Assembly (NCBI GenBank): GCA_000004695.1 | Contig: CM000153.2 | Span: forward strand, 3,488,001-3,552,000 | Direction: 5' to 3' | DNA length: 64,000 nucleotides | Source of the DNA: Dictyostelium discoideum | Lineage: Eukaryota | In this document: positions 592-18,448 of the stretch, in pieces | Position numbering within the stretch: the first letter of the stretch is position 1 | Layout: each line of letters begins with the position of its first letter | Position numbers and translations under genes: made by a program | Notes under the pieces: generated by a model | What the model saw: only the letters and a program-made list of their open reading frames with translations | Databases searched by the model: none | What the model was told of the DNA's origin: nothing

Positions 592-1392
592 TTAAAACAA
601 TTCTTTTAATCTGGTAAATAGTAATGATCTACTATAAAGAGTATTTACATTTTTAAAAATGAGCTTCAAATAAGAATTCATATTTCCCATATAATCTTCA
701 TCTGATGTAAGAGAATCAACATAAAATTCTACTTCTTCTTTACAAGTTGGCATTAAAGATAAAATATCACTAAGTTCATTTTTAATTAAATTAAAACGGT
801 TTGAAATTAAAATAACAGATTTGATAGCCAAATCATAATTATCTTTAACAACTTGAACAGTGGCTGCATTGGGAGTACTTGGTAATAAAGAATTTTTTGT
901 TGAATTCATTGCTGAGGCCAAAGATGTTGCTGATTGTTTTATTGTGTCAATGCTTGATTTTAAATTATTAATTGATGTTGAAATTGTATCAAATTTTGAG
1001 GTATCATAATTGGTGTATTTGGTAATTGTATTAATATAACCAATTGTATTGTTTAAACAAACAAGAGAAATGTTGTTGACTTCATTATATAATGATATTA
1101 AATTATTATAATGAGTAACGGCTCCAAATGCATTACTTGTCGAGAGGGCAACGATATTATTCAAATAATATTTACTAAATATAATATTAAATACATCACC
1201 TTGAACTTCATAACTCATAGCTTTTGAAAATTGTAAAGCATCAATTTGATTAGAGTATGTAGGTAATGCAGCACGGGGTATATCAGCAGGGTTAATAAGA
1301 TCTCTACCTATTGCGGGTATATAATTTGAAACCAATGAGTTTGAAAAACAAACTAAATAAAGAATAATGACCAAAGGAATTTGGAAAAACAT
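592..1392 (-). CDS. 'Family S' secreted protein of 266 aa: N-terminal signal peptide, no TM segment, N-glycosylation sequons. Paralogue of 8907-9686 and 15514-16284.
   Basis: Uninterrupted ORF with a hydrophobic N-terminus (MFFQIPLVIILYLVCFSNS). It shares the motifs IGRDLN..DIPRA..PT and FSKYYLNNIVALSTSN.FGA with the two other S copies. Its composition is much less AT-biased than the flanks. Confidence 0.7.
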   Translation of the reverse strand: MFFQIPLVIILYLVCFSNSLVSNYIPAIGRDLINPADIPRAALPTYSNQIDALQFSKAMSYEVQGDVFNIIFSKYYLNNIVALSTSNAFGAVTHYNNLISLYNEVNNISLVCLNNTIGYINTITKYTNYDTSKFDTISTSINNLKSSIDTIKQSATSLASAMNSTKNSLLPSTPNAATVQVVKDNYDLAIKSVILISNRFNLIKNELSDILSLMPTCKEEVEFYVDSLTSDEDYMGNMNSYLKLIFKNVNTLYSRSLLFTRLKELF

Positions 1393-1824
1393 TTTTAAAA
1401 TTTTAAAAAAATGTATAAATTAATGTAAATAATAATTTAAAGGATAAATATTTGAATATTTTATTATTGAATGAATGAAAATGATAATGGAATTTTTTTT
1501 TTTTTTGGTTTAAATAGTGGAATATTAATTTTTTAAAACCAAAGAAAAATGTGTATTTTTTTTTTTTGTCATTTGCAAAAATTATTACAAACATGATTGT
1601 TGAAGATTTTCTTGGAATGGGTTTTTTTCTTTTTTTTTGTTCAACACCTTAACATATTTTTCTTTTTGTTTAAAGAGTTGTGATGTGATCACAGGATTAT
1701 TCCTTGATATCAAAAAAAAAACCTGGCCAATAAGGATTAAAAAAAATCTTTTAAAATTCCAGGAAAACAATGAATTATGTAAAATTTTTCTAATTTTTTA
1801 ATTTAATAAAGAAAAAAAGAAATG

Positions 1825-1870
<46 letters not shown>

Positions 1871-2501
1871 AAAAAATAAAAATGATTAAAAAAATTACTA
1901 AATCAAAGAAAGTTTAATTTTATTTGTTTGTATTTTTAAATTTTAATTAAAAAAACCAATATGCTTTTTAGTGTTTAAAATTTTTTATTAAAGAAAAAAA
2001 AAATAAAAAAAAAAAAATAAATAAATAATATATAATAAAAATAACTCCAAACAAAAGTAAATAAAGGAAAAAAAAAAAAAAAAAAAAAAAAAAATAATAA
2101 CTCTATGCAACTAACGAAAAGGAGTATCCCTAAGAGGACCTGATTTATTTTTGATTGTTTTTTAATTTTAATTTTAATTTTATTTTTTAAATTAATATTA
2201 TTTTTTCTTGGTTTAAATTATTAGTTATTATTATTTATTGTCACTAAAATGAGTTTGTAAAAAATGAAGATTTGTTTATTGGCAATTTAAAAACTTTTAT
2301 TAACCGTTACACCATTTTATCTAGTCATTTAATCTTATATTTAAGATTTATAATCTATGTTATTTTTTTTTTTTTTTGAAAAGATTTAGCTACTTCATGG
2401 GCTCCCAAATTTAACAAGGATCTAAATTTAATTGAAATTTACTGATTCATTAATCTTTCTAACCACTACTTAAAATTCTATAAGATTTATTCAATGATAG
2501 A

Positions 2502-4259
2502 TTATAACTGTTCTAGTTGTGCAAAATCTTCATACTCTTGTTCATAAGCCACTACCGATATGTCAATGGTCGGAGAAACTGCTTTTTCATCCTCATCTGC
2601 AACAGCAATACATGGGCTATCATTAAGTATGCTATCATTTGAACTAATTTTATCATGATTATGGAGTTGTGAGTTTGAGATATATTTATTATTTTTATGT
2701 CTTTTATAAATGAATGAGAATATAATAAGACATGCGATAGATGCAATACCTAAAATTGAAATAATAATAGAAATGTTCCTTGATCTGCTACTTTTAGGAG
2801 AGTTTGGCGTTGAAGTTGATGTTGGTGCTGATGTTTGAGTTGATGTTTCGGTTGATGGATTTTCTGTTGGTTGATCTGTTGGTGTGTCTGTTGGATTAGA
2901 ACTACAAATATAGTTTGTGGTATCATGTATGGTTTCTCCTAAATAAAAGCTGCAATTTTGGCAACCACAAAAGGATTTGTTTGTAAAAGTGATATGACCA
3001 AAAAAAAATATGGAGGAGTTACTTCCAATAATGGGTGTATCAGAACTACTTAGGTCCAAACCAGATAAACTGACTGAACTACTTTCTGTTTTTAAAAAAT
3101 AATTGGGTGATATAAGCGAAGAAATTTCAATGAATGCAAAAGAGAGTGAACTGTTTTCAACAAAAACTAAAAAGTTTTCAATTGAATTTAAGGAAAGAGT
3201 TGATTGCAAACAATCTTTAATTTCTACGTGGCTCTTTTTGATTACTGCAAATGAATCTTCATATTCAAGTCCAAGATATTTATTTCTGTGATAAAATGGT
3301 GTTTGTGTGGTATTCTCGTATTCAAAGTTAAATAGTGTTGCGCCATTGCAATCATATAAATATATGAATGTGGAGAGTTGGTTGTTTTTGAAAATCAATG
3401 CTTTCAGTGTGACCAAGGAGCTGATTGACAAAATGAATGGATTCACAGAGAAATTAATGTTTGATATTTTTTGAATTGGAATATATATCTCTCCACCTTG
3501 GATAAAAACAAACGGAGTAGACAAGAATGTTCCATTATCTATATTCATACCTCTATTAATAAAACCACCGACCACATAAATAGGTGGTACATAATCGGTA
3601 ACTGAACCTGGTGCAAACAGACTTGAAGACGACTTTAAGTTATAACCTAAGGTTGATATAAAATGTACAGTGGTGAACCTTGCGTTGTAAATCTGGCCTA
3701 AATTCTTTGGATAAACCATTAATATGCTACTTGATGAATATATATTTACACGATTGAAATAAAGAGCAAACGATTTTGAATTGTTAGTTGAAGTTAAATT
3801 TATTTCTTGATTAATGTTGATTTTTGCAATTGTTTGATCCCAATTTAAATGTCTTTGCGATGTACATGAATAGGTTGAATTTGGTTGATCTGGCTCTTCA
3901 ATATTGAGAAATGGTAGTTGCGTTGAGTTCCAACCATCAATGTTAATAGATACATTATCACTACTTGATTTAATATATAAAGTACCACAATAATTATATA
4001 AATTTCCCAATGAAACAGGTGTTGATCCATTAATATCACTATTAATAACAATACTATTATTACTTGTACTGGTTTTTGATAATAAAATAGCTCTATTTGA
4101 AGCATCTTCAAATGATGTACAAACTGGTTGATTATCTACACCACATTCTTCAAAAGAATTGTAATTTCTTTCAACATTATAATTAACTTTAATATCTGTT
4201 GCAACGCAAATATTTAATAAAAAAAATAATAAATAAAAATATTTTAATTTTTCAATCAT
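2502..4259 (-). CDS. 'Family L' type-I membrane glycoprotein of 585 aa. It has a signal peptide, a roughly 450-aa NxS/T-rich ectodomain, a CGCxxCxF motif, a Thr/Pro/Ser stalk, one TM segment, and a short acidic tail carrying DEKAVSPTIDxxVVAYE.
   Basis: Single long ORF. The N-terminus MIEKLKYFYLLFFLLNICVAT is a signal peptide. TDTPTDQPTENPSTETSTQTSAPTSTSTP is a mucin-like stalk. IIISILGIASIACLIIFSFIY is the TM segment. The protein is paralogous to 5674-7545 and 16616-18448. Confidence 0.8.
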   Translation of the reverse strand: MIEKLKYFYLLFFLLNICVATDIKVNYNVERNYNSFEECGVDNQPVCTSFEDASNRAILLSKTSTSNNSIVINSDINGSTPVSLGNLYNYCGTLYIKSSSDNVSINIDGWNSTQLPFLNIEEPDQPNSTYSCTSQRHLNWDQTIAKININQEINLTSTNNSKSFALYFNRVNIYSSSSILMVYPKNLGQIYNARFTTVHFISTLGYNLKSSSSLFAPGSVTDYVPPIYVVGGFINRGMNIDNGTFLSTPFVFIQGGEIYIPIQKISNINFSVNPFILSISSLVTLKALIFKNNQLSTFIYLYDCNGATLFNFEYENTTQTPFYHRNKYLGLEYEDSFAVIKKSHVEIKDCLQSTLSLNSIENFLVFVENSSLSFAFIEISSLISPNYFLKTESSSVSLSGLDLSSSDTPIIGSNSSIFFFGHITFTNKSFCGCQNCSFYLGETIHDTTNYICSSNPTDTPTDQPTENPSTETSTQTSAPTSTSTPNSPKSSRSRNISIIISILGIASIACLIIFSFIYKRHKNNKYISNSQLHNHDKISSNDSILNDSPCIAVADEDEKAVSPTIDISVVAYEQEYEDFAQLEQL

Positions 4260-4366
4260 AAATGAAGTTAATAGTTTAATATTTTTATATATATATTTTT
4301 AAAAAATTTTACTATAATAACATTAAAAAAAAAAGATCAAATCTCATAATAATTTTTTTCAACTCG

Positions 4367-4402
<36 letters not shown>

Positions 4403-4496
4403 CCAAAAACAGCGTTTTTTTCTCTTAAGAAGCAGTTGAACTTGATTTTTATTTTAAAAAATTTTTGAGAACTTATTTGGGCTTTAATTTTGGCCC

Positions 4497-4547
<51 letters not shown>

Positions 4548-4740
4548 AAAAAATATAAATATAAAAACTAAAAGAAACCTTAGTTTGAGAATTAAAAATT
4601 ATATAGGTTTAAAACAAAATTTTTTTTTTTCTTTATTTCTTTTTTATTTTTTTTATTTTAAAAGATAAAAGATAATCACTTTTTTTTTTTTTTTTTTTTT
4701 TTTTTTTCTTTCTTGATAATAATACAGTGTAAAAACGATA

Positions 4741-5655
4741 TGAGATCATGAAGTTGAGTTAACCATATCCAGCATAATCTTCAAATTGACGTTCATAGTC
4801 TACCACATGCTATAGATCAAGCCCAAAATAACTGTAACAATGATAATATTCCTAGTCTTACTATCAATTGGACTTGTTGTTGTTGATGTTGATGGTAATG
4901 TAGTTGAGGTAGTTATAGTTGTTGTAGTTGATGTTGTAGTTGTAGTTGATGTTGTTAAAGCTGATGTGGTTGGTGTTGTTGCAGCTGAAGTAGTTGATGT
5001 TGTTCCAGCTGATGCGTTTGATGTTGTTGAAGTAGTTGTGGTTGATGTTGTGGAAGCAAATGTAGTAGATGTTGTTGAGGTTGTTGGTGTCGGTGTCAGT
5101 GTCGGATCAATGCAAGTGTGGTTAACGATGGGAATAAATTGAGAACCATATATAAGAAAATATTTACATTCTTCACAACCACAATAAATGTTATTTAATT
5201 TAGTGCTTTTTTTTGATAAATTCACATCTGAATTATTTCCAATCCCAACTTGTGAAATTCATATATTGAAAGAAGAGCCATCTTGAACATGATTGAGTTT
5301 GGTTATTTTCTTCTTCTGGTTCATATGTCAGAAATGGTTGGGTTGAGCTTGATCCTCGATTATTGTATAATTATTATTTTCATTATTGATATTTTCTGAA
5401 GTGATCCACAAGGCACCACAATAATTACCCAATGTAATTTGTTCTGATGTTACACTTATATTACCAATGATACCAATACAAACACGACTATTATTTGATA
5501 TTAATAAAAATGCTCTATTAACAGCATCTTTGAGTGATGTGCATATAGGTTCATTATTCATACCACATCCTTTTGATGAATTATAAACAGTTGGGATGTT
5601 GTAATTTAATAAAATCGTTGAATTTGGGCATAGCGGCGATGAAATATTTGCCATA
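4741..5655 (-). pseudogene. Promoterless, internally deleted tandem duplicate of the neighbouring L gene (5674-7545). It keeps the ectodomain N-terminus, the CGC/stalk/TM region and the 3' flank. It lacks the signal peptide, about 0.8 kb of ectodomain and part of the tail.
   Basis: Near-identical nucleotide blocks: 5281-5640 vs 7111-7470, 5165-5260 vs 6185-6290, 4810-4880 vs 5868-5940, 4741-4808 vs 5656-5725. The ORF fragments 5328-5654 and 4800-5225 match the N- and C-terminal parts of the 623-aa protein. The duplicate reading frame starts MANISS with no signal peptide, directly abutting the 3' flank sequence of the parent gene. Confidence 0.7.
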
Positions 5656-5673
5656 TGAGATCATGAAGATGAA

Positions 5674-7545
5674 TTAGTCATATTCAGCATAATCTTCAAA
5701 TTGATGTTCATAGGCTACCAATGTGAGATCAATAGTTGGAGATACTGCTTTCTCATCTTCTTCAGCCACAGCATATAGGTTACTATCAAAGCTCGGTTTT
5801 TCAGTGGATGAGGTATGTGATATGAATCTCCTATTTTTATACATTTTATAGATTAATGAGAATATTATGAGAGATGCTATAGACGCAGTGCCCAAAATAA
5901 CCGTAACAATAATAATATTCCTAGTCTTACTATCAATTGGACTTGTTGTTGTTGTTGTTGATGATGATAATGATGATGATAATGTAGTTGAGCTTGTTGC
6001 AGCTGATGTAGTTGATGTTGTTCCAGCTGATGTAGTTGATGTTGTTGGAGTAGCTGTGGTTGATGTTGTTGAAGCCAATGTAGTTGATGTTGTTGAGGTT
6101 GAGGTTATTGTTGTTGTTGGTGTAGGTGTTGGTGTTGGTGTCGGATCAATGCAAGTGTGGTTAACGATGGGAATAAATTGATAACCATATATAAGAAAAT
6201 ATTTACATTCTTCACAACCACAATAAATGTTATTTAATTTAGTGCTTTTTTCTGATAAATTCACATCTGAATTATTTCCAATCACTGGAAACATATTTGA
6301 TTGTCCACCTACAGCATCTTGTAAACTGACTGAACTATTGATAATGATAAGTATATGATCCACTTGGATTGGAAATAAACTACTATATGTTATTTTTAAA
6401 GAACTTTCTTCTGCAAAAAATAGACAGTGTACAGAGACATTTGGATTGAGTCTGTTGACCAAATAATTTTTTATACCAAATGTTTTGCCACTGGAATTCT
6501 TCATTGTTATTGATGAATTCTCTAATTGGTATCCTAAATAACTCTTTCTTTGATAATTGAGTGGACTTGATACATTTTTGAAGTATATACGACTAAATAG
6601 ATCTCTTTCAGTGGTTTGTGGGAACTGTGAGATAAAGAGAAATGTACTCATTATAGTGTTGGAGAAATTAGAGTGACCAATAAAATCCAAGCTTGAATTA
6701 ATGAGAAACATGAATGGATTCTCGAAGAAATTACAATTTTCTATCGTTGATTCAGCAGAATATACAAATGATCCTTTTTCGATGTATATAAATGGAATTG
6801 CTTCTAATACACTATCAAATAAACTTAAATTGAAAGTAATTGAACCACCCATCACATAAATTGGTGATATAAAATCGGTCAAGGAATTTGGAGCTAAAAT
6901 GGTGGGCGGTTTTAGGTTGAACACTTTTGTATAAGTAAAGCCTATCCTCAAAGATTGATAGTTATAAATAAAAGCAATACTTCTTGGTGAAATTATATTA
7001 CAACTTTCGAAATATATGAAACTTGATTGTTTCTCGGAATTATCTGAAATTTGATTGGTCACAGAGACAATTGGTCTATCCCAATTTGTAAAATTTATAT
7101 ATTGAAAGAAGAACCATCTTGAACATGATTGAGTTTGATTATTTTCCTCTTCTGGTTCATATGTCAGAAATGGTTGGGTTGAGCTTGATCCATCGATTAT
7201 TGTATAATTATTATTTTCATTATTGATATTTTCTGAAGTGATCCACAAGGCACCACAATAATTACCCAATGTAATTTGTTCTGATGTTACATTTATATTA
7301 CCAATGATACCAATACAAACACGACTATTATTTGATATTAATAAAAATGCTCTGCTAACAGCATCTTTGAGTGATGTGCATATCGGCTCGTTATTAAAAC
7401 CACATCCTTCTGATGAATTATAAACCGTTAGGATGTTGTAATTTAATAAAATCGTTGAATTTGGGCATAGCGGCGCTGAAACCACAAAAACAATTTTTAA
7501 AAATATTGCAAACAAAATTGAAAAATTATTTGATTTTCTAATCAT
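5674..7545 (-). CDS. 'Family L' type-I membrane glycoprotein of 623 aa, parent copy of the adjacent pseudogene.
   Basis: Single ORF. The signal peptide is MIRKSNNFSILFAIFLKIVFVVSA. It has many NxS/T sequons, the IYCGCEECKYF motif, a (TP)n/Thr-Ser stalk, the TM segment IIIVTVILGTASIASLIIFSLIY, and the tail ...EEDEKAVSPTIDLTLVAYEHQFEDYAEYD. Confidence 0.8.
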   Translation of the reverse strand: MIRKSNNFSILFAIFLKIVFVVSAPLCPNSTILLNYNILTVYNSSEGCGFNNEPICTSLKDAVSRAFLLISNNSRVCIGIIGNINVTSEQITLGNYCGALWITSENINNENNNYTIIDGSSSTQPFLTYEPEEENNQTQSCSRWFFFQYINFTNWDRPIVSVTNQISDNSEKQSSFIYFESCNIISPRSIAFIYNYQSLRIGFTYTKVFNLKPPTILAPNSLTDFISPIYVMGGSITFNLSLFDSVLEAIPFIYIEKGSFVYSAESTIENCNFFENPFMFLINSSLDFIGHSNFSNTIMSTFLFISQFPQTTERDLFSRIYFKNVSSPLNYQRKSYLGYQLENSSITMKNSSGKTFGIKNYLVNRLNPNVSVHCLFFAEESSLKITYSSLFPIQVDHILIIINSSVSLQDAVGGQSNMFPVIGNNSDVNLSEKSTKLNNIYCGCEECKYFLIYGYQFIPIVNHTCIDPTPTPTPTPTTTITSTSTTSTTLASTTSTTATPTTSTTSAGTTSTTSAATSSTTLSSSLSSSTTTTTSPIDSKTRNIIIVTVILGTASIASLIIFSLIYKMYKNRRFISHTSSTEKPSFDSNLYAVAEEDEKAVSPTIDLTLVAYEHQFEDYAEYD

Positions 7546-7635
7546 ATATTAATAAATTTACAAAGAAAACTGTTTTTTTTGATGTGAGCAAAAAAATTTT
7601 TAAACCTTTTTTTTCATCAATATTTATTTTTTTTT

Positions 7636-7671
<36 letters not shown>

Positions 7672-7890
7672 AATCGGTGGGGAGGAGACACCCAAAGTGA
7701 TTGAAAAAAAAAAAAAAAAAGAAAACAATAAAAAAAAAAAAAAAAAAACAAAAAAATAAAAAAAAAAAAAAAAATCTGAAGTTCTTCCAATATAAACAAG
7801 AAAATAAAGAAGTATAATAAATAATCAAAATAAAAAAAAAAAAATAAAAAAAAATTAAAATAAAAAATTATTTAATATTATTTATTTGTA

Positions 7891-7944
<54 letters not shown>

Positions 7945-7962
7945 ATTTAATATTATTTTTGT

Positions 7963-7997
<35 letters not shown>

Positions 7998-8018
7998 TAA
8001 AAAAGTTTAAAAAAAAAA

Positions 8019-8093
<75 letters not shown>

Positions 8094-8906
8094 AAAACTG
8101 AAAAGCTGGTCCATTTGCACAAGTTTGCATTTTTTTATTTTTATTTTTTTTTTTGTTGCCAAAAAGTATCATTTAATTATGGATGCGAGGCTTTTGGTAG
8201 TTGCGCTAGTTTGTGAGATTTCAAATTTAGTGTGGAATTGTTAACAAATTTTTTTGTATGCTTTTTCTTATGTTAGGTACATTAAAATTTAATGATCTTA
8301 ATTTTTTGAGGGCTTTAAAATTAAACAATTGTTAGAAAAATAATGTGGGGTTTTTTAAAAAAATAAAAAACTAATCTTGAAAATAATATTTTGTGGTTGA
8401 ATAATTTTTTTAAACACACGCAAAATGGGTTGTAAAACAAAAAAAAACGAAACAATTTGTCGATAATCACCTACCACCATGGATTTTCATCTCCAAAAAA
8501 AAAACAAATAATAAAAAAAAAAAAAAAAAAAAAGCCATCCCCTTAAAATATATTATTTTATTGATATTAATAGGGTTTTCTTTTGAGTTTAAAAATACTG
8601 TATAGTTTCGCAAAAAAATGCATCTTCATATTTTAAGTGTAAGAAGTTTCTTGGTTTTAGGAAATTAATTGATACCAATAATTAAAAATTATTTAACGAG
8701 TTTTTTTAAAAATTCTTATTTAAACAAAATTTTTTTTTTTTTTATTCATTAAATTCAAAATTAAAAATAATAAATATATAAATACAAATAAATAAATATA
8801 AATTATTAAATTAAATAAATAAATAAAAAAATAAAAATCAAATAGAATAATTATTACATTTCTCTTTAAAATAAAATCTTTTCTATAAATAAATAATATA
8901 AATAAA
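7546..8906. promoter_or_regulatory. Divergent (head-to-head) intergenic region shared by the L gene 5674-7545 (-) and the S gene 8907-9686 (+). It contains a roughly 450-bp block of normal-complexity sequence (8100-8520) flanked by homopolymer runs.
   Basis: The two start codons point away from each other across this interval. Bases 8100-8520 have clearly higher GC and complexity (e.g. gctggtccatttgcacaagtttgc, ggatgcgaggcttttggtagttgcgctagtttgtgag) than typical intergenic poly-A/T. No ORF is present. Confidence 0.4.
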
Positions 8907-9686
8907 ATGAACAAATCTATTTTCTTTAAAATAATCATATTTTTCTCTTTATTCAGTTTTTCAAATTGCATAATAACAGATTATGTATTTTCTATTGGCC
9001 ATAATTTAAACTCCCCAGTTGATATTCCTCGTGCTGCCGTTCCTACTTTCGACAATCCATTGAATGAAAATATTGGTCATCTCCCATCAAGTGTATATAA
9101 TATTACACTTTCCACATTTTATTTAAATAACATTGTGTCTCTCTCAACAAACAATCAATTTGGTGCCTTGTTCCATTATAATAATTTAAATGCTTTATTT
9201 ACCAAAATGAATAACATAACCAAAGTAAATCTAAATAAAGCCTATAATGATATCAATGCTATTGGAAAGTTTTCAACTTTAAATCAAATAACTATCATTC
9301 AAATTAGAGAATATTGGCTAAATGCCCAATCAAATTATCATATTCTCCAAAATACTATAACCTCATTAATCATTTCTATTCAACAAACAAAAAATAATTT
9401 GCTCGTAAACTCTCCAAATTCTAATTTATATAATATTGTATTAAATAATTACGAGATCTCTATTAATGGATTAATACAACTAAATTCAACATTTCAAAAT
9501 ATTAAAACTACTCTTGATATTACTTATTCAGCCTTTAGTTTAATACTACAACAAAACCTAGAGTATAATCAAAGTCCTTTCAATGAAGCATATTACATAA
9601 CAAAATTAAATGAAGGATTAAAGGAATTATTGAAAAGTTTCAACAGTTTTTATCTTCAATCATTTTTATTGTGTAGATTAATATAA
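8907..9686 (+). CDS. 'Family S' secreted protein, 259 aa.
   Basis: ORF with signal peptide MNKSIFFKIIIFFSLFSFSNC. It carries the family motifs IGHNLNSPVDIPRAAVPT and TFYLNNIVSLSTNNQFGA. Confidence 0.7.
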   Translation: MNKSIFFKIIIFFSLFSFSNCIITDYVFSIGHNLNSPVDIPRAAVPTFDNPLNENIGHLPSSVYNITLSTFYLNNIVSLSTNNQFGALFHYNNLNALFTKMNNITKVNLNKAYNDINAIGKFSTLNQITIIQIREYWLNAQSNYHILQNTITSLIISIQQTKNNLLVNSPNSNLYNIVLNNYEISINGLIQLNSTFQNIKTTLDITYSAFSLILQQNLEYNQSPFNEAYYITKLNEGLKELLKSFNSFYLQSFLLCRLI

Positions 9687-14143: not shown

Positions 14144-15513
14144 AATTAATCAATTAAAATAAATTGAATAAATATTAAATTAAATTAATAAAATAAATAT
14201 AATTAAAATAAATTTAAAATTAAATCAAAAAATAAATTAAATAAAATAAAGTCCTAGAGTATACCACTTCCGTTACAATAGTTAAATAAAGTTCATAAAA
14301 GTTTTTCATTAAAAAATTTTAGTAAAAGTGGAGTTTTGAATCGATAAAACTGAGGTATATTTATACGAAATATATAGTTAAATAGAGGAATTCAAGGCGA
14401 ATATAATCATATATGTGGTTATAATTAAAATTAAAAAATTAAAAATTTTCCACCCTTTTTCGAAAATATTTATTTTTTCATTTTTTTTATCATTTTTTTT
14501 TAAAGGAGATCGAAAACTAAGGCTTGTTATATAATCAATTGAAAATGGTAATCGTTTATTGATTCAAAGTTAGTAATAGTTATATTTTATTTTTAATTTT
14601 AAAATTAATATTATTTAATTTTATTATTATTCTTTATTTAATTATTTTTTTAATTTTTTATCTACTGAAAAAATTAAGTTTAAATCTACTTGTTACAAAA
14701 AAAAAAAAAAGATTCGATGGACAGATAATAATAATAACTAGATTGAGATCAAAAAAAAATCTAGTTCAATGAAAATAAAATAAACGATTAATTCTAAAAA
14801 TAGAGCAATCATTTTAAATTTTATTTCAATTTTCTACATATGCCTTTTTACAATTGGGAATACAAATTTGTAAAACTGGGTTGTTTTAATTTGAATTACA
14901 CATTCTTACTAAAGTTTGAGTGACTACTCAAAAAAATGAGTTTTGGAAAAAAAAAAAAAAAAAAAATAAATGTTTTAATTAATAATTTAACAATTCTTTG
15001 AATGAATTAATAATGGGGTGACCAAATTTTTTTTTTTTTATTTTTTTTGAAAGGGTGAGAAATGGGGTTGAATAAATATTTTCAAACCTACCTTTTTTTG
15101 TTTTGAAACCCCGAGTCTTTAGGGTTTTTTTTTTTTTTTTTTTTTTTTTATTACCAACCTCTTATACTATTTAATAATTTATTTTCATGGTTTTAATTTT
15201 TAAAAAAAAAGAATTAGTTTATTTTCAATTTTGATGGGGTTTTAAAAATAAGCTTTCTCAACTTCTTTACTACAACGCTTTATTTTCACTAATTTAATTA
15301 GTATTTCATTTTTCCTTGCAAAGAAAATAAGTTTTTCTTTTTATTTTTTTTTTTTAATTTTTTAATTTTTTCTTTTTATCCTTTTTTTTTTATTTTATAA
15401 AAAGAAAAAATTTTGAGTTTTAAAAAATCATTATTAATTATTTAATTAACAATTGTGTATTTTTAAAAAAAAAATTCTATATTTAATTAAACTTTAAAAA
15501 AAAAAAAAAAAAA

Positions 15514-16284
15514 ATGAAATTTAAATCATTACAAATATTAAATTTAATTATAATTTCTTTTTATTTTAATTTATCAAATTCTACAATTACAAATTATGTA
15601 CTATTAATTGGAAGAGATTTAAATTGTACTGAAGATATTCCAAGAGCTTCTTTGTTAACAATTACAAACCAAGCCTATGCTATGAATATAAAATTTGAAA
15701 CCAATGATGAAGTTTTTAATTTTACTTTTAGTAAATATTATTTAAACAATTTAGTTTCATTAGGAATTAATGAATCTCCAATAGCTCTTTTCAATTATAA
15801 TAATTTCACAAATTTAATAAATAATTTAACAAATGAATCTCAGTTTGGTTTAAATAATACTTTTAATTATATAAATACAGTTAGTAAATTTTCAAATTTG
15901 GATAATTTAAAATTGACAACAATTTCAAATTCAGTTTCTCAAATGTTAACTAAAATAAAATCAATTAAAAATGTTACAGTTGCTTTAGATAATAATATTA
16001 AAAGTATTAATAGTCCCACTAAAGTTGTAATGGATAGTTATCAACTTGTTAGTTCCTCTCTCAATTTTGTAAATAATCGTATATCTAATATTATTACCAC
16101 ACTAAACTCAATGAAACAAAATGTGAATGATTTTCAAAATGAGTTGGATTATTATTCAATTATTGGTGATGATGATGATCATATGACAACAATGAATGAC
16201 ATTATGAAATCTTTCTTAAATAATTGTTTTATGTATTACAATTATTCGGTTTTTTTTTCAAGATTTATGATTGATCTTAATTAA
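15514..16284 (+). CDS. 'Family S' secreted protein, 256 aa.
   Basis: ORF with signal peptide MKFKSLQILNLIIISFYFNLSNS. It carries the motifs IGRDLNCTEDIPRASLLT and FSKYYLNNLVSLGINESPIALFNYNNF. Confidence 0.7.
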   Translation: MKFKSLQILNLIIISFYFNLSNSTITNYVLLIGRDLNCTEDIPRASLLTITNQAYAMNIKFETNDEVFNFTFSKYYLNNLVSLGINESPIALFNYNNFTNLINNLTNESQFGLNNTFNYINTVSKFSNLDNLKLTTISNSVSQMLTKIKSIKNVTVALDNNIKSINSPTKVVMDSYQLVSSSLNFVNNRISNIITTLNSMKQNVNDFQNELDYYSIIGDDDDHMTTMNDIMKSFLNNCFMYYNYSVFFSRFMIDLN

Positions 16285-16615
16285 ATCCTTAAATAAATAA
16301 AAAAAATAAAAATAAAAAAAATAAAAAATAAATAAAAATAAAAAAAAATATGTAAATTAAAACCCCAAAATTTTTTTTTTTTTTTTTTTTTTTTTTGATT
16401 ATTTTTTTTTTTTCAAATATTTAAATCTAGTGATTCTATTATTAGATTTTTTTTTTTATTTTTTTTAACCCATACTTTTTTATTTTCATTTTTTATTTTT
16501 TTTTTGATCTATTTTTTGTAAACCAACCAAATGTTTTTTTTTTTTTTTTTTTTTACCTCATATTTTTTTTTTTTTTTTTTATAAATTAAAGTAATAAATA
16601 AAATTAAATAAAACC

Positions 16616-18448
16616 ATGAAAGAATTTATATATTATTATTTTTTATTTTATTTTTTTATTAAAATTATAAATTCTGAAAATATTATTTTTGTAGATTATA
16701 ATATTAAGAGGAATTATAATTCATTTGATGAATGTGGTAGCAGTGATCAACCAATTTGCACATCTTTCGAGGATGCAATCAATAAAGTAATTTTAATATC
16801 AATCAATTCTTTAGATACTCCTACTATTTATATAAATATAATTGGTGATATTAATGGTACAAATATAATATCATTAGGTAATTTATATAATTTTTGTGGT
16901 ACTCTATATATTAGATCAAATAGTAGTAATTCCAATATAAATATTGATGGAACAAATTCAACTCAACAACCATTTCTAATAATTCAAGAACCAGATGAAA
17001 TTAATTTAACAATTTCAAAATGTACAAAAAAAAGAGTTTTTATATTTCAACGTTTAAATTTTATAAATTGGGATCAAACTATTATTAGTATAAATATTAA
17101 TCAAGAAATTAACGATCAACCAATTGATCAATCAAAATTTTTTCAAATATTAATGGTTGATACTTTTATAATTTCATCAAGTAGTATAATATTTGTAAAT
17201 CCAAAGAATTCAAAAGATTTATTTAAAAATTATAATTTTAAGGGTTTACAATTTTATTTTACAACTTCATATTGTATTAATATGAAATCTTCAAAACTAT
17301 TAGCTCCGAATTCTACAGATAATTTTTTACCACCAATTTATATTATTGGTGGTTCGATTATAAGGTTTTTTAATATTCAAAATAGTTCAATATTATCAAC
17401 TCCTTTTATTTATATTAAAAGTGGATCATTGGAATTTGTTAATGATATTTCAATATCAAATAATAACTTTTCAATTTATCCAATTGTTTTATTAATAAAT
17501 TCAAAGTTTTCAACTTTAAAAACAATTTCATTCAATGAAAATGAATTTTTTACTTTTTTTTTATTTTATGAATGCCAAACTCAACCAATCACACCAATTA
17601 ACTTTTTTAATAATATTCAACCACATCAATCAAATTATCAGAGAAAATTATATCTAGGAATTCAATTGGAAAATTCAGTAACTGTAATAAAAAATAGCCA
17701 TTTTACAATACAGGAATATTTAAAGTTTACTTTAAATTTAAATAATACTATTGGAAATGATATATTTTATGTTGAAAATAGTAATTTTATTATTCAATTT
17801 TTGGGATTGGAAAGATTGATTCAAGGTAATCATATGATTAAGGTAATCAATAGTATAGTAACTTTTCAAAATATAGATTTAAAATGGGACGGATTTCCAA
17901 TTATTGGTTCAAACTCAACAATTGATTTCATATATTGTAAAAATTTAAATAATTCATTTTGTGGTTGCTCTACTTGTAATTTTTTAAATCAATCTTTTAA
18001 TTGTGATTTTAGTTCTTCAACAGCATCATCTTTTGAACCAACCGAAACTCCAACTCTTTCTGAAACTAATTCTCCCACAAACACTCAAACACCACCTACA
18101 ATAACCGAGACTCCAACTCATTCTAAAACCAATACCCCAACAAATACTCAAACCCCAAAAATAAACGAAACGCAACCATTTATAACAAATACCCCAACAC
18201 CAACACAAACTTTAAAAAAATCAAATAAAAATAGGAATATAGCTATTATTGTTGTAACTATAGTTTTAGGTGTCACATCAATTGTTTCACTTTTAATATT
18301 TTCAATATATAAAAGATATAATTCTAAATTATCAATTAGGGATAATGATAACATGTTTGGAGCTGGTGATGAAAAAGCATTCTCACCAAGTTTTGATATT
18401 GTGACACCCAATATAAATGAAGATTGCGGTCAAAAAGAAGGATTATAA
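16616..18448 (+). CDS. 'Family L' type-I membrane glycoprotein, 610 aa.
   Basis: ORF with signal peptide MKEFIYYYFLFYFFIKIINS. It has the shared ectodomain motifs VDYNIKRNYNSFDECGSSDQPICTSFEDAINK and SFCGCSTCNF, a T/P-rich stalk (ETPTLSETNSPTNTQTPPTITETPT...), the TM segment IAIIVVTIVLGVTSIVSLLIFSIY, and the tail GDEKAFSPSFDIV. Confidence 0.8.
   Translation: MKEFIYYYFLFYFFIKIINSENIIFVDYNIKRNYNSFDECGSSDQPICTSFEDAINKVILISINSLDTPTIYINIIGDINGTNIISLGNLYNFCGTLYIRSNSSNSNINIDGTNSTQQPFLIIQEPDEINLTISKCTKKRVFIFQRLNFINWDQTIISININQEINDQPIDQSKFFQILMVDTFIISSSSIIFVNPKNSKDLFKNYNFKGLQFYFTTSYCINMKSSKLLAPNSTDNFLPPIYIIGGSIIRFFNIQNSSILSTPFIYIKSGSLEFVNDISISNNNFSIYPIVLLINSKFSTLKTISFNENEFFTFFLFYECQTQPITPINFFNNIQPHQSNYQRKLYLGIQLENSVTVIKNSHFTIQEYLKFTLNLNNTIGNDIFYVENSNFIIQFLGLERLIQGNHMIKVINSIVTFQNIDLKWDGFPIIGSNSTIDFIYCKNLNNSFCGCSTCNFLNQSFNCDFSSSTASSFEPTETPTLSETNSPTNTQTPPTITETPTHSKTNTPTNTQTPKINETQPFITNTPTPTQTLKKSNKNRNIAIIVVTIVLGVTSIVSLLIFSIYKRYNSKLSIRDNDNMFGAGDEKAFSPSFDIVTPNINEDCGQKEGL

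Follow-up and report, generated by a model that had tools for sequence, protein, structure and literature searches.

A conserved Ser-Pro block in the predicted cytoplasmic tails of a Dictyostelium discoideum membrane protein family, a candidate docking motif

The 64-kb stretch of Dictyostelium discoideum DNA analysed here (contig CM000153.2; hereafter the window) is AT-rich, with a GC content of 14-29%, and its encoded proteins match those of strain AX4 exactly. It contains three paralogous genes, which we call L1, L2 and L3 (pairwise identity of the proteins 42-47%) and which are annotated in the databases as encoding hypothetical or transmembrane proteins and nothing more. The three proteins share one architecture, composed of an N-terminal signal-like segment, an ectodomain of ~430 residues, a Ser/Thr/Pro-rich stalk, a single hydrophobic segment and a hydrophilic tail. 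A reading made earlier from the letters alone (the sequence-only reading) had singled out a ten-residue block in this tail, DEKA[V/F]SP[T/S][I/F]D, as a conserved motif with a possible signalling or sorting function, and this block is the subject of the present analysis. A literature search with the DDB_G and UniProt identifiers of six genes, i.e. the L genes and the three S genes paired with them (see below), found no paper mentioning them in the library searched, and in a Pfam scan of L1-L3 and S1-S3 every match was far below the gathering threshold.

The L proteins are predicted to be type I single-pass membrane glycoproteins with a cytoplasmic tail, as judged from hydropathy, the positive-inside rule and the distribution of glycosylation sequons. 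The ectodomains of L1-L3 contain 12-19 N-x-S/T sequons each, all of them located N-terminal of the transmembrane segment, and in each protein four Lys or Arg residues are found among the first ten residues past this segment. The hydrophilic tails are 45-67 residues long and have net charges of -7, -6 and -2. Directly after the transmembrane segment, most clades of the family possess a conserved basic juxtamembrane stretch, YK[RM][HY]KN[NKR][KR][YF]I.N[ST], which is shortened in D. discoideum L3. For L1, an AlphaFold2 model based on a family alignment of 23 sequences comprises a beta-rich core with a predicted local distance difference test score (pLDDT) of 80-95, a disordered stalk (residues 453-498), a helix (residues 492-526) and a tail (residues 522-585) with a pLDDT of ~30, i.e. 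predicted to be disordered. When this model was compared with the PDB using Foldseek, the top matches were all right-handed beta-helix proteins (the PfbA adhesin, phage tailspikes, AlgE epimerases and Ag43), at the level of weak similarity (E-values of ~1e-3 or worse, TM-scores of 0.1-0.27 and 7-12% identity). The likeness to beta-helix adhesins and tailspikes such as PfbA (4mr0), CBA120 TSP3 (6nw9) and Ag43 (7ko9) thus concerns the predicted fold of the ectodomain and says nothing about the tail. The positions of the features are collected in Table 1.

Table 1. Features of the L and S genes in the window (positions are those of the window, whose first nucleotide is 1)
Feature	Position	Strand	Details
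S1 gene (DDB_G0285629)	592-1392	-	266 residues; secreted helical protein; neighbour of L1
L1 gene (DDB_G0285775)	2502-4259	-	open reading frame, 585 residues; exact match to XP_638176
L1 cytoplasmic tail	2505-2705	-	residues 519-585; net charge -7; predicted disordered
L1 C-terminal tail element	2505-2522	-	
L1 VAYE	2541-2552	-	
L1 motif DEKAVSPTID	2562-2591	-	Ser562-Pro563, codons 2571-2576
L1 basic juxtamembrane stretch	2675-2705	-	
L1 transmembrane segment	2706-2774	-	residues 496-518; sole hydrophobic 19-mer (Kyte-Doolittle >1.8) besides the N-terminus
Degraded tandem copy of L2	4770-5654	-	between L1 and L2; internal deletions; stop codon inside the transmembrane segment (…VILGLIYSMW-stop)
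Rejected open reading frame	4840-5142	+	V/D-rich (VVDVV…)
L2 gene (DDB_G0285631)	5674-7545	-	open reading frame, 623 residues; architecture as in L1
L2 cytoplasmic tail	5677-5847	-	residues 567-623; from hydropathy
L2 VAYE	5707-5718	-	
L2 motif DEKAVSPTID	5728-5757	-	Ser602-Pro603, codons 5737-5742
L2 basic juxtamembrane stretch	5817-5847	-	
L2 transmembrane segment	5848-5916	-	from hydropathy
Rejected open reading frame	5867-6181	+	V/D-rich (VVDVV…)
S2 gene (DDB_G0285633)	8907-9686	+	259 residues; divergently transcribed from L2
S3 gene (DDB_G0285791)	15514-16284	+	256 residues; immediately upstream of L3
L3 gene (DDB_G0285423)	16616-18448	+	open reading frame, 610 residues; architecture as in L1
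L3 transmembrane segment	18239-18310	+	from hydropathy
L3 cytoplasmic tail	18311-18445	+	from hydropathy
L3 basic juxtamembrane stretch	18311-18340	+	
L3 motif DEKAFSPSFD	18368-18397	+	Ser590-Pro591, codons 18383-18388
L3 Phe codon at motif position -1	18380-18382	+	
L3 C-terminal tail element	18428-18445	+	

The block is present in the tails of all three L proteins, and the strings quoted in the sequence-only reading proved to be exact translations of the 3' ends of the open reading frames. It lies 23-40 residues behind the membrane, inside the acidic disordered tail. In a six-frame scan of the whole 64 kb the pattern was found at these three sites only, all of them in L genes. Given the local amino-acid composition, the strict regular expression has a per-residue probability of 6e-12, which corresponds to ~4e-5 expected occurrences in a proteome of 7 million residues. 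The interval 2552-5860, in which the motif had been placed, brackets the tails of L1 and L2, but it also takes in the complete L1 ectodomain, intergenic DNA and a degraded copy of the L2 type without the motif. A VAYE sequence downstream of the block, ascribed to all L proteins, occurs in L1 and L2 but not in L3, where IVTPNINED stands instead; nor is Y-E common to the family, since neither the L3 nor the L5 clade has it. Similarly, the Val/Phe alternative in front of the Ser has to be narrowed. The Phe is real in AX4 L3 and recurs in one AX4-like Logan sequence (P0028), whereas Val is found in L3 of the strains ACTFIW, ACTFIR, ACTFIY and ACTFIZ, in D. firmibasis L3 and in all other clades. 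Since all other tails carry Val, the Phe is a variant of the AX4 lineage and not a family alternative.

To describe the block across the family, 22 tails were recovered, representing five paralogue clades from D. discoideum, D. cf. discoideum, D. firmibasis and D. dimigraforme, i.e. a small and closely related sample. The counts given below are for 21 tabulated tails; the 22nd, that of D. firmibasis L1, was checked separately, and the D. firmibasis L1, L2, L3 and L5 tails were read from the syntenic locus. The Ser-Pro pair, which had been called strictly conserved, is indeed invariant in all 22 tails, across the five clades and four species, and the family consensus can be written as [DE]-[KRN]-[AD]-V-S-P-x-Φ-[DEN], where Φ is a hydrophobic residue. 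With the Ser numbered 0, Ser and Pro occupy positions 0 and +1 in 21/21 tails, position -4 is Glu or Asp (21/21), position -3 is Lys or Arg (18/21), position -2 is Ala or Asp and position -1 is Val (20/21, and also in D. firmibasis L1), with AX4 L3 contributing the single Phe. On the other side, position +2 is free (Thr, Ser, Asn, Ala or Ile), position +3 is Ile, Phe, Leu or Tyr in every one of the 21 tails, and position +4 is Asp or Glu in 19 of them, Asn being found in two or three L4 tails; no tail has Lys or Arg anywhere from +2 to +5. Between AX4 and D. firmibasis, nine of the ten motif residues are kept in ortholog pairs whose ectodomains have an identity of 44-64%. Loss of the Ser in orthologues, named in advance as an outcome that would count against the motif, was thus not seen within the D. 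discoideum clade, to which this comparison is limited, as no homologue was found outside it. Every family member with a transmembrane segment carries the motif, and the secreted members stop before the motif position.

A second conserved element closes the tails of the L1, L3, L4 and L5 clades. It reads …[ED]D..[AG]Q[KL]Ex[L/I/F]-COOH, and contains an invariant Asp; the L2 clade has AEYD in its place, and D. firmibasis L1 has LDGQ. Its pattern is reminiscent of class III PDZ ligands or of hydrophobic C-terminal signals for export from the endoplasmic reticulum (ER).

The block is under purifying selection. Nei-Gojobori counts were obtained from the codon alignment of L1, L2 and L3, among all of which synonymous divergence (dS) is saturated (>1). 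The proportion of nonsynonymous differences (pN) in the motif is 0 between L1 and L2 and 0.13-0.15 between either of them and L3, compared with 0.34-0.51 in the juxtamembrane tail and 0.36-0.42 in the ectodomain. The ten motif codons of L1 and L2 differ by five synonymous changes and no replacement. Because synonymous divergence is high and replacements in the motif are absent, recent gene conversion is excluded and purifying selection is demonstrated. In an alignment of nine lineages, DEKAVSP ranks sixth among the best-conserved seven-residue blocks of the entire protein, and the tail contains no other such block; when the tail columns were shuffled, its score was matched in 0.2% of 100,000 trials. 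Between AX4 and D. firmibasis, the ratio of nonsynonymous to synonymous divergence (dN/dS) is 0.14-0.17 for the transmembrane segment plus tail versus 0.39-0.48 for the ectodomain, indicating that the former evolves ~3-fold more slowly. Such a slow membrane and tail portion combined with a fast ectodomain fits a receptor-like protein, which is what we infer the L proteins may be.

The distribution of the family and of its tail was determined separately. Two word-seeded profile searches of a collection of 5.8 billion proteins, one with the full-length proteins and one with the ectodomain only, confined the family to five taxa: D. discoideum strains, D. cf. discoideum, D. citrinum, D. dimigraforme and D. 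firmibasis. In these searches no L homologue was found in D. purpureum or in more distant dictyostelids; since nothing was found beyond the D. discoideum clade, the L family seems to be young. A tail-only search of the same kind of word-indexed database (5.8e9 proteins) was uninformative, as it returned one 57-residue fragment and missed the full-length L proteins. For the tail, an exhaustive search of 1.84 billion (1.84e9) representative proteins was made with a HMMER profile built from 14 tails. It gave ten matches, eight to members of the L family and two to unrelated repetitive proteins, in which units of the type …VSPQLD… or …VSPTIDLG… sum up by chance. As the profile recovers the L family and two chance matches only, the tail is neither a reused module nor a low-complexity artefact, and the concern that the motif might turn up in many unrelated proteins was not borne out: the tail was found in no other family. 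This search detects similarity over the length of a tail (~38 bits or more) and not an isolated core of 7-10 residues, so that 'family-private' applies to the tail and not to the bare core; by chance alone, the loose core [AD][VF]SPx[IFLY][DEN] should occur ~15 times per proteome.

Among the related proteins P0011-P0021 (e.g. DDB_G0285771, which lies outside the window), the same ectodomain also exists in secreted forms of ~470 residues that end just past a CGC..C motif, and in D. citrinum there are forms in which it is fused to a CBM49 carbohydrate-binding module (PF09478) in place of the transmembrane segment and tail. The family therefore includes membrane-anchored, soluble and glycan-binding versions. 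Several public gene models appear suspect: P0008 (D. firmibasis) is a fusion of S3 and L3, P0001 (D. discoideum ACTFIW) is a fusion of a truncated L2 duplicate with L1, and P0010 (D. dimigraforme) lacks most of the transmembrane segment, probably because of a spurious intron.

The block is clearly kept by selection, it is probably a binding site, and it is perhaps switched by phosphorylation. Since 8-11 conserved residues stand within a disordered and otherwise variable tail, we regard [DE]-[DE]-[KR]-[AD]-V-S-P-x-Φ-[DE]-Φ as a putative short linear motif, private to a young family of type I glycoproteins of the D. discoideum clade, that would be read by a folded cytosolic partner. The explanation that we place first, if tentatively, is that the block serves as a docking site for such a partner and that docking is switched by a proline-directed kinase of the CMGC group acting on the invariant Ser. 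It is ranked first because the residues that never change are Ser and Pro, and [S/T]-P is the minimal determinant of CMGC-group kinases. The Ser is followed by Pro in all 22 tails, and the site is predicted to be accessible, being cytoplasmic and located in a tail with a pLDDT of ~30. The basic residue at -3 is compatible with the preference of DYRK-type kinases, and the acidic one at +4 with recognition of the GSK3 type. In these respects the L tails resemble the CMGC sites known from disordered receptor tails, from which they differ in that the block is conserved over more positions than a kinase needs and has neither the +2 Arg of ErkB sites nor the +3 Lys/Arg of sites for cyclin-dependent kinases (CDK). 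This excess of constraint, on Val at -1, Φ at +3, the acidic residue at +4 and Φ at +5, argues for a reader domain that would contact 8-10 residues. Phosphorylation of the Ser would then switch docking, and docking would connect the surface protein with signalling or with a regulated form of trafficking or turnover. The signalling or sorting function suggested by the sequence-only reading thus finds support in selection, disorder and exclusivity.

Several observations weigh against phospho-switched docking. The L gene and UniProt identifiers and the motif peptides are absent from the supplement text of the ErkB phosphoproteome (Nichols 2019, PMC6397043) and of a 2025 chemorepellent phosphoproteome (PMC12785797), as well as from that of an AMPK phosphoproteome (PMC8584165) and of a 2026 life-cycle proteome (PMC12821622), although, with files that may be truncated, this absence counts only weakly. 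The dominant chemotactic kinase motif of Dictyostelium, that of ErkB substrates, is given as [S/T]PR in PMC6397043, whereas position +2 of the block is Thr, Ser, Asn, Ala or Ile and never Arg. A CDK site, [S/T]Px[K/R], is likewise excluded by the hydrophobic residue found at +3 in all tails. Phosphosites often show exchanges of Ser for Thr or for an acidic residue, but the Ser is replaced in this way in none of the 22 tails, small and closely related as the sample is. It is equally conceivable that the Ser-Pro pair forms a structural turn in a peptide that is bound independently of phosphorylation. Of the other phosphorylation-dependent sites considered, a CK2 site at the motif Ser was rejected because Pro at +1 and the lack of an acidic residue at +3 are unfavourable, and a 14-3-3 mode 1 site because it needs Pro at +2.

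The main alternative, possible but less probable than phospho-switched docking, is that the block belongs to a sorting or anchoring signal that does not depend on phosphorylation. The acidic peptide studded with hydrophobic residues, the ED patch and the C-terminal Q[KL]Ex[LIF] would be read constitutively by a coat or adaptor, and the Ser-Pro would only shape the peptide. Candidate mechanisms are AP-1/acidic-cluster sorting of the Rh50 type, export from the ER through a di-acidic or a C-terminal hydrophobic signal, and a cytoskeletal linker. The strongly acidic character of the tails, expressed in their net charges, agrees with such a signal, as do the DEDE or EEDE run just before the motif in L1 and L2 and the invariant Asp within the second acidic patch. 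The span of the constraint, 8-10 residues including hydrophobic positions, and the fact that no evidence of phosphorylation was found in the supplements searched point the same way. A precedent is Rh50, whose acidic C-terminal run DDEEE underlies its contractile-vacuole targeting in Dictyostelium (Mercanti et al. 2006, as summarised in PMC7079120); as in Rh50, an acidic run is located in the cytoplasmic C-terminal part of L1 and L2. However, this run is limited to the L1 and L2 clades, with only D-E before the motif in L3 (GAGDEK) and A-D-N-D in L5 (AAADND), and it is the Ser-Pro that is conserved instead. The C-terminal Ex[LIF] is also not common to the family, as neither the L2 clade nor D. 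firmibasis L1 possesses it. The two residues that never vary, Ser and Pro, are required by no known acidic-cluster or coat signal. The classical sorting signals YxxΦ and [DE]xxxL[LI] are absent or unconserved. The dileucine type fails conservation across the clades, and a YxxΦ signal, like an SH2-binding phosphotyrosine, was rejected because the Tyr is not conserved, the L3 and L5 tails having no Tyr at the place of VAYE. A YEDF sequence is confined to the L1 clade, where it is present in four of the five L1 tails of D. discoideum and D. cf. discoideum, with FEDF in the remaining one and HEDC in D. firmibasis L1.

A special case of phospho-switched docking, which we consider quite unlikely, is a phosphodegron of the Cdc4/FBW7 type (Φ-Φ-pS/pT-P-x-x-[D/E/pS]), through which, once it was phosphorylated, an F-box/WD40 ligase would ubiquitinate the L proteins and down-regulate them from the surface; F-box/WD40 proteins such as FbxA exist in Dictyostelium. 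The consensus of such degrons is Φ-Φ-pT-P-x-x-[pS/pT/E/D]. The sequence A-V-S-P-x-Φ-[D/E] fits, with hydrophobic or small residues at -1 and -2, an acidic residue at +4 in 19/21 tails and no basic residue from +2 to +5. The likeness is one of pattern only, and this match is weak because the loose core is expected by chance at the frequency given above. Moreover, canonical degrons prefer Thr and often have Pro at +2, whereas the L proteins, which are membrane-bound, always have Ser, with Thr, Ser, Asn, Ala or Ile at +2, and in two or three L4 tails Asn replaces the acidic residue at +4.

It is very improbable that the block is without function and that its identity goes back to a recent duplication of neighbouring paralogues or to gene conversion between them. 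The genes lie in tandem and the L1 and L2 blocks are identical in 10/10 residues, as this explanation would have it, but the codon analysis contradicts it: dS is saturated among all three paralogues, the flanking tail has diverged (pN 0.34-0.51), and the ten L1/L2 codons carry five synonymous and zero replacement differences. In addition, the Ser-Pro is kept in five clades and four species, and the sole copy without the motif is a truncated duplicate. It is hardly credible that the C-terminal segment is not cytoplasmic, the motif being removed with a glycosylphosphatidylinositol (GPI) attachment signal or being luminal in an inverted topology. Nothing but the single C-proximal hydrophobic segment would suggest this, and a hydrophilic tail of 45-67 residues comes after that segment, whereas GPI signals end with their hydrophobic stretch. 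The four Lys/Arg residues past the segment, the N-terminal signal peptide, and the position of all sequons and of the mucin-like stalk on the N-terminal side also speak against it, and a removed peptide would escape the selection observed.

The block is a fresh example of a familiar kind of feature, the short linear motif, in an unstudied and lineage-restricted family. It offers a precise handle on the L proteins, with which surface decoration may be told from a receptor with a cytoplasmic output. If a partner were found, a lineage-specific and strain-divergent family of surface proteins would be linked to a cytoplasmic pathway; even without one, the L family documents a short linear motif that is held constant while its surroundings turn over.

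An S gene lies next to every L gene. The S proteins are secreted, consist of ~260 residues and share a conserved N-terminal block, NY.P.IGRDL..P.DIPRA. Counterparts of S genes are located at 8094-8870 and 15486-16286 of the sequence designated L001, and both the L/S pairing and the gene order are syntenic in D. firmibasis. In the AlphaFold2 model of an S protein, four long helices form a bundle (pLDDT 69), whose best matches in the PDB are alpha-pore-forming toxins of the ClyA/NheA/Smh group, with E>0.1, i.e. not significant. We compared the AX4 genes of the window (592-9686 and 15514-18448) with those of strain ACTFIR (L003). For the L1 ectodomain dS was 0.113 and dN 0.034, for the L2 ectodomain 0.125 and 0.057, and for S2 0.33 and 0.135, compared with 0.06 and 0.011 for an interposed poly-Asn gene used as a control. 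The L and S proteins are 89-95% identical between the strains, versus 98-98.7% for two neighbouring small secreted proteins, and dN/dS of the L ectodomains between strains is 0.3-0.5 overall.

The strong divergence of the L/S locus between strains leaves room for a further reading, rather unlikely in our estimate, in which L and S would form an undescribed, rapidly diversifying ligand-receptor system of the D. discoideum clade, serving self/non-self, mating or prey recognition. The variable beta-helix ectodomain would recognise, and the V-S-P block would be the constant output, a phospho-switch by which engagement is passed on to the cytosol or the receptor is down-regulated. If this were true, the system would combine a variable outside with a constant inside, in analogy to TgrB1/TgrC1 but made of unrelated parts. 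TgrB1 and TgrC1 are the allorecognition pair of D. discoideum, and L/S resemble them in being neighbouring genes for surface proteins, in diverging between strains, and in joining a variable ectodomain to a conserved membrane and cytoplasmic part. They differ in that the sequences are unrelated and the L and S proteins have no Pfam domain, in that the L ectodomain is predicted to be a beta-helix and not IPT/TIG, in that the S partner is secreted, helical and without a transmembrane segment, and in that dN/dS of the L ectodomain is below 1 overall.

The degraded tandem copy of L2 that lies between L1 and L2 has lost the motif by deletion, so that only …YERQFEDYAGYG is left, out of frame. In strain ACTFIR the corresponding duplicate (L003, 7317-9047, + strand) retains an open ectodomain reading frame of 576 codons and ends with the same truncation (…GLIHSMW-stop). 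As the truncation point is identical in AX4 and ACTFIR, the tail-less copy is old, and it may persist as a secreted or decoy form. The two V/D-rich open reading frames on the + strand (Table 1) were rejected as genes, being the antisense of Thr/Ser-rich stalk repeats of the L2 copies.

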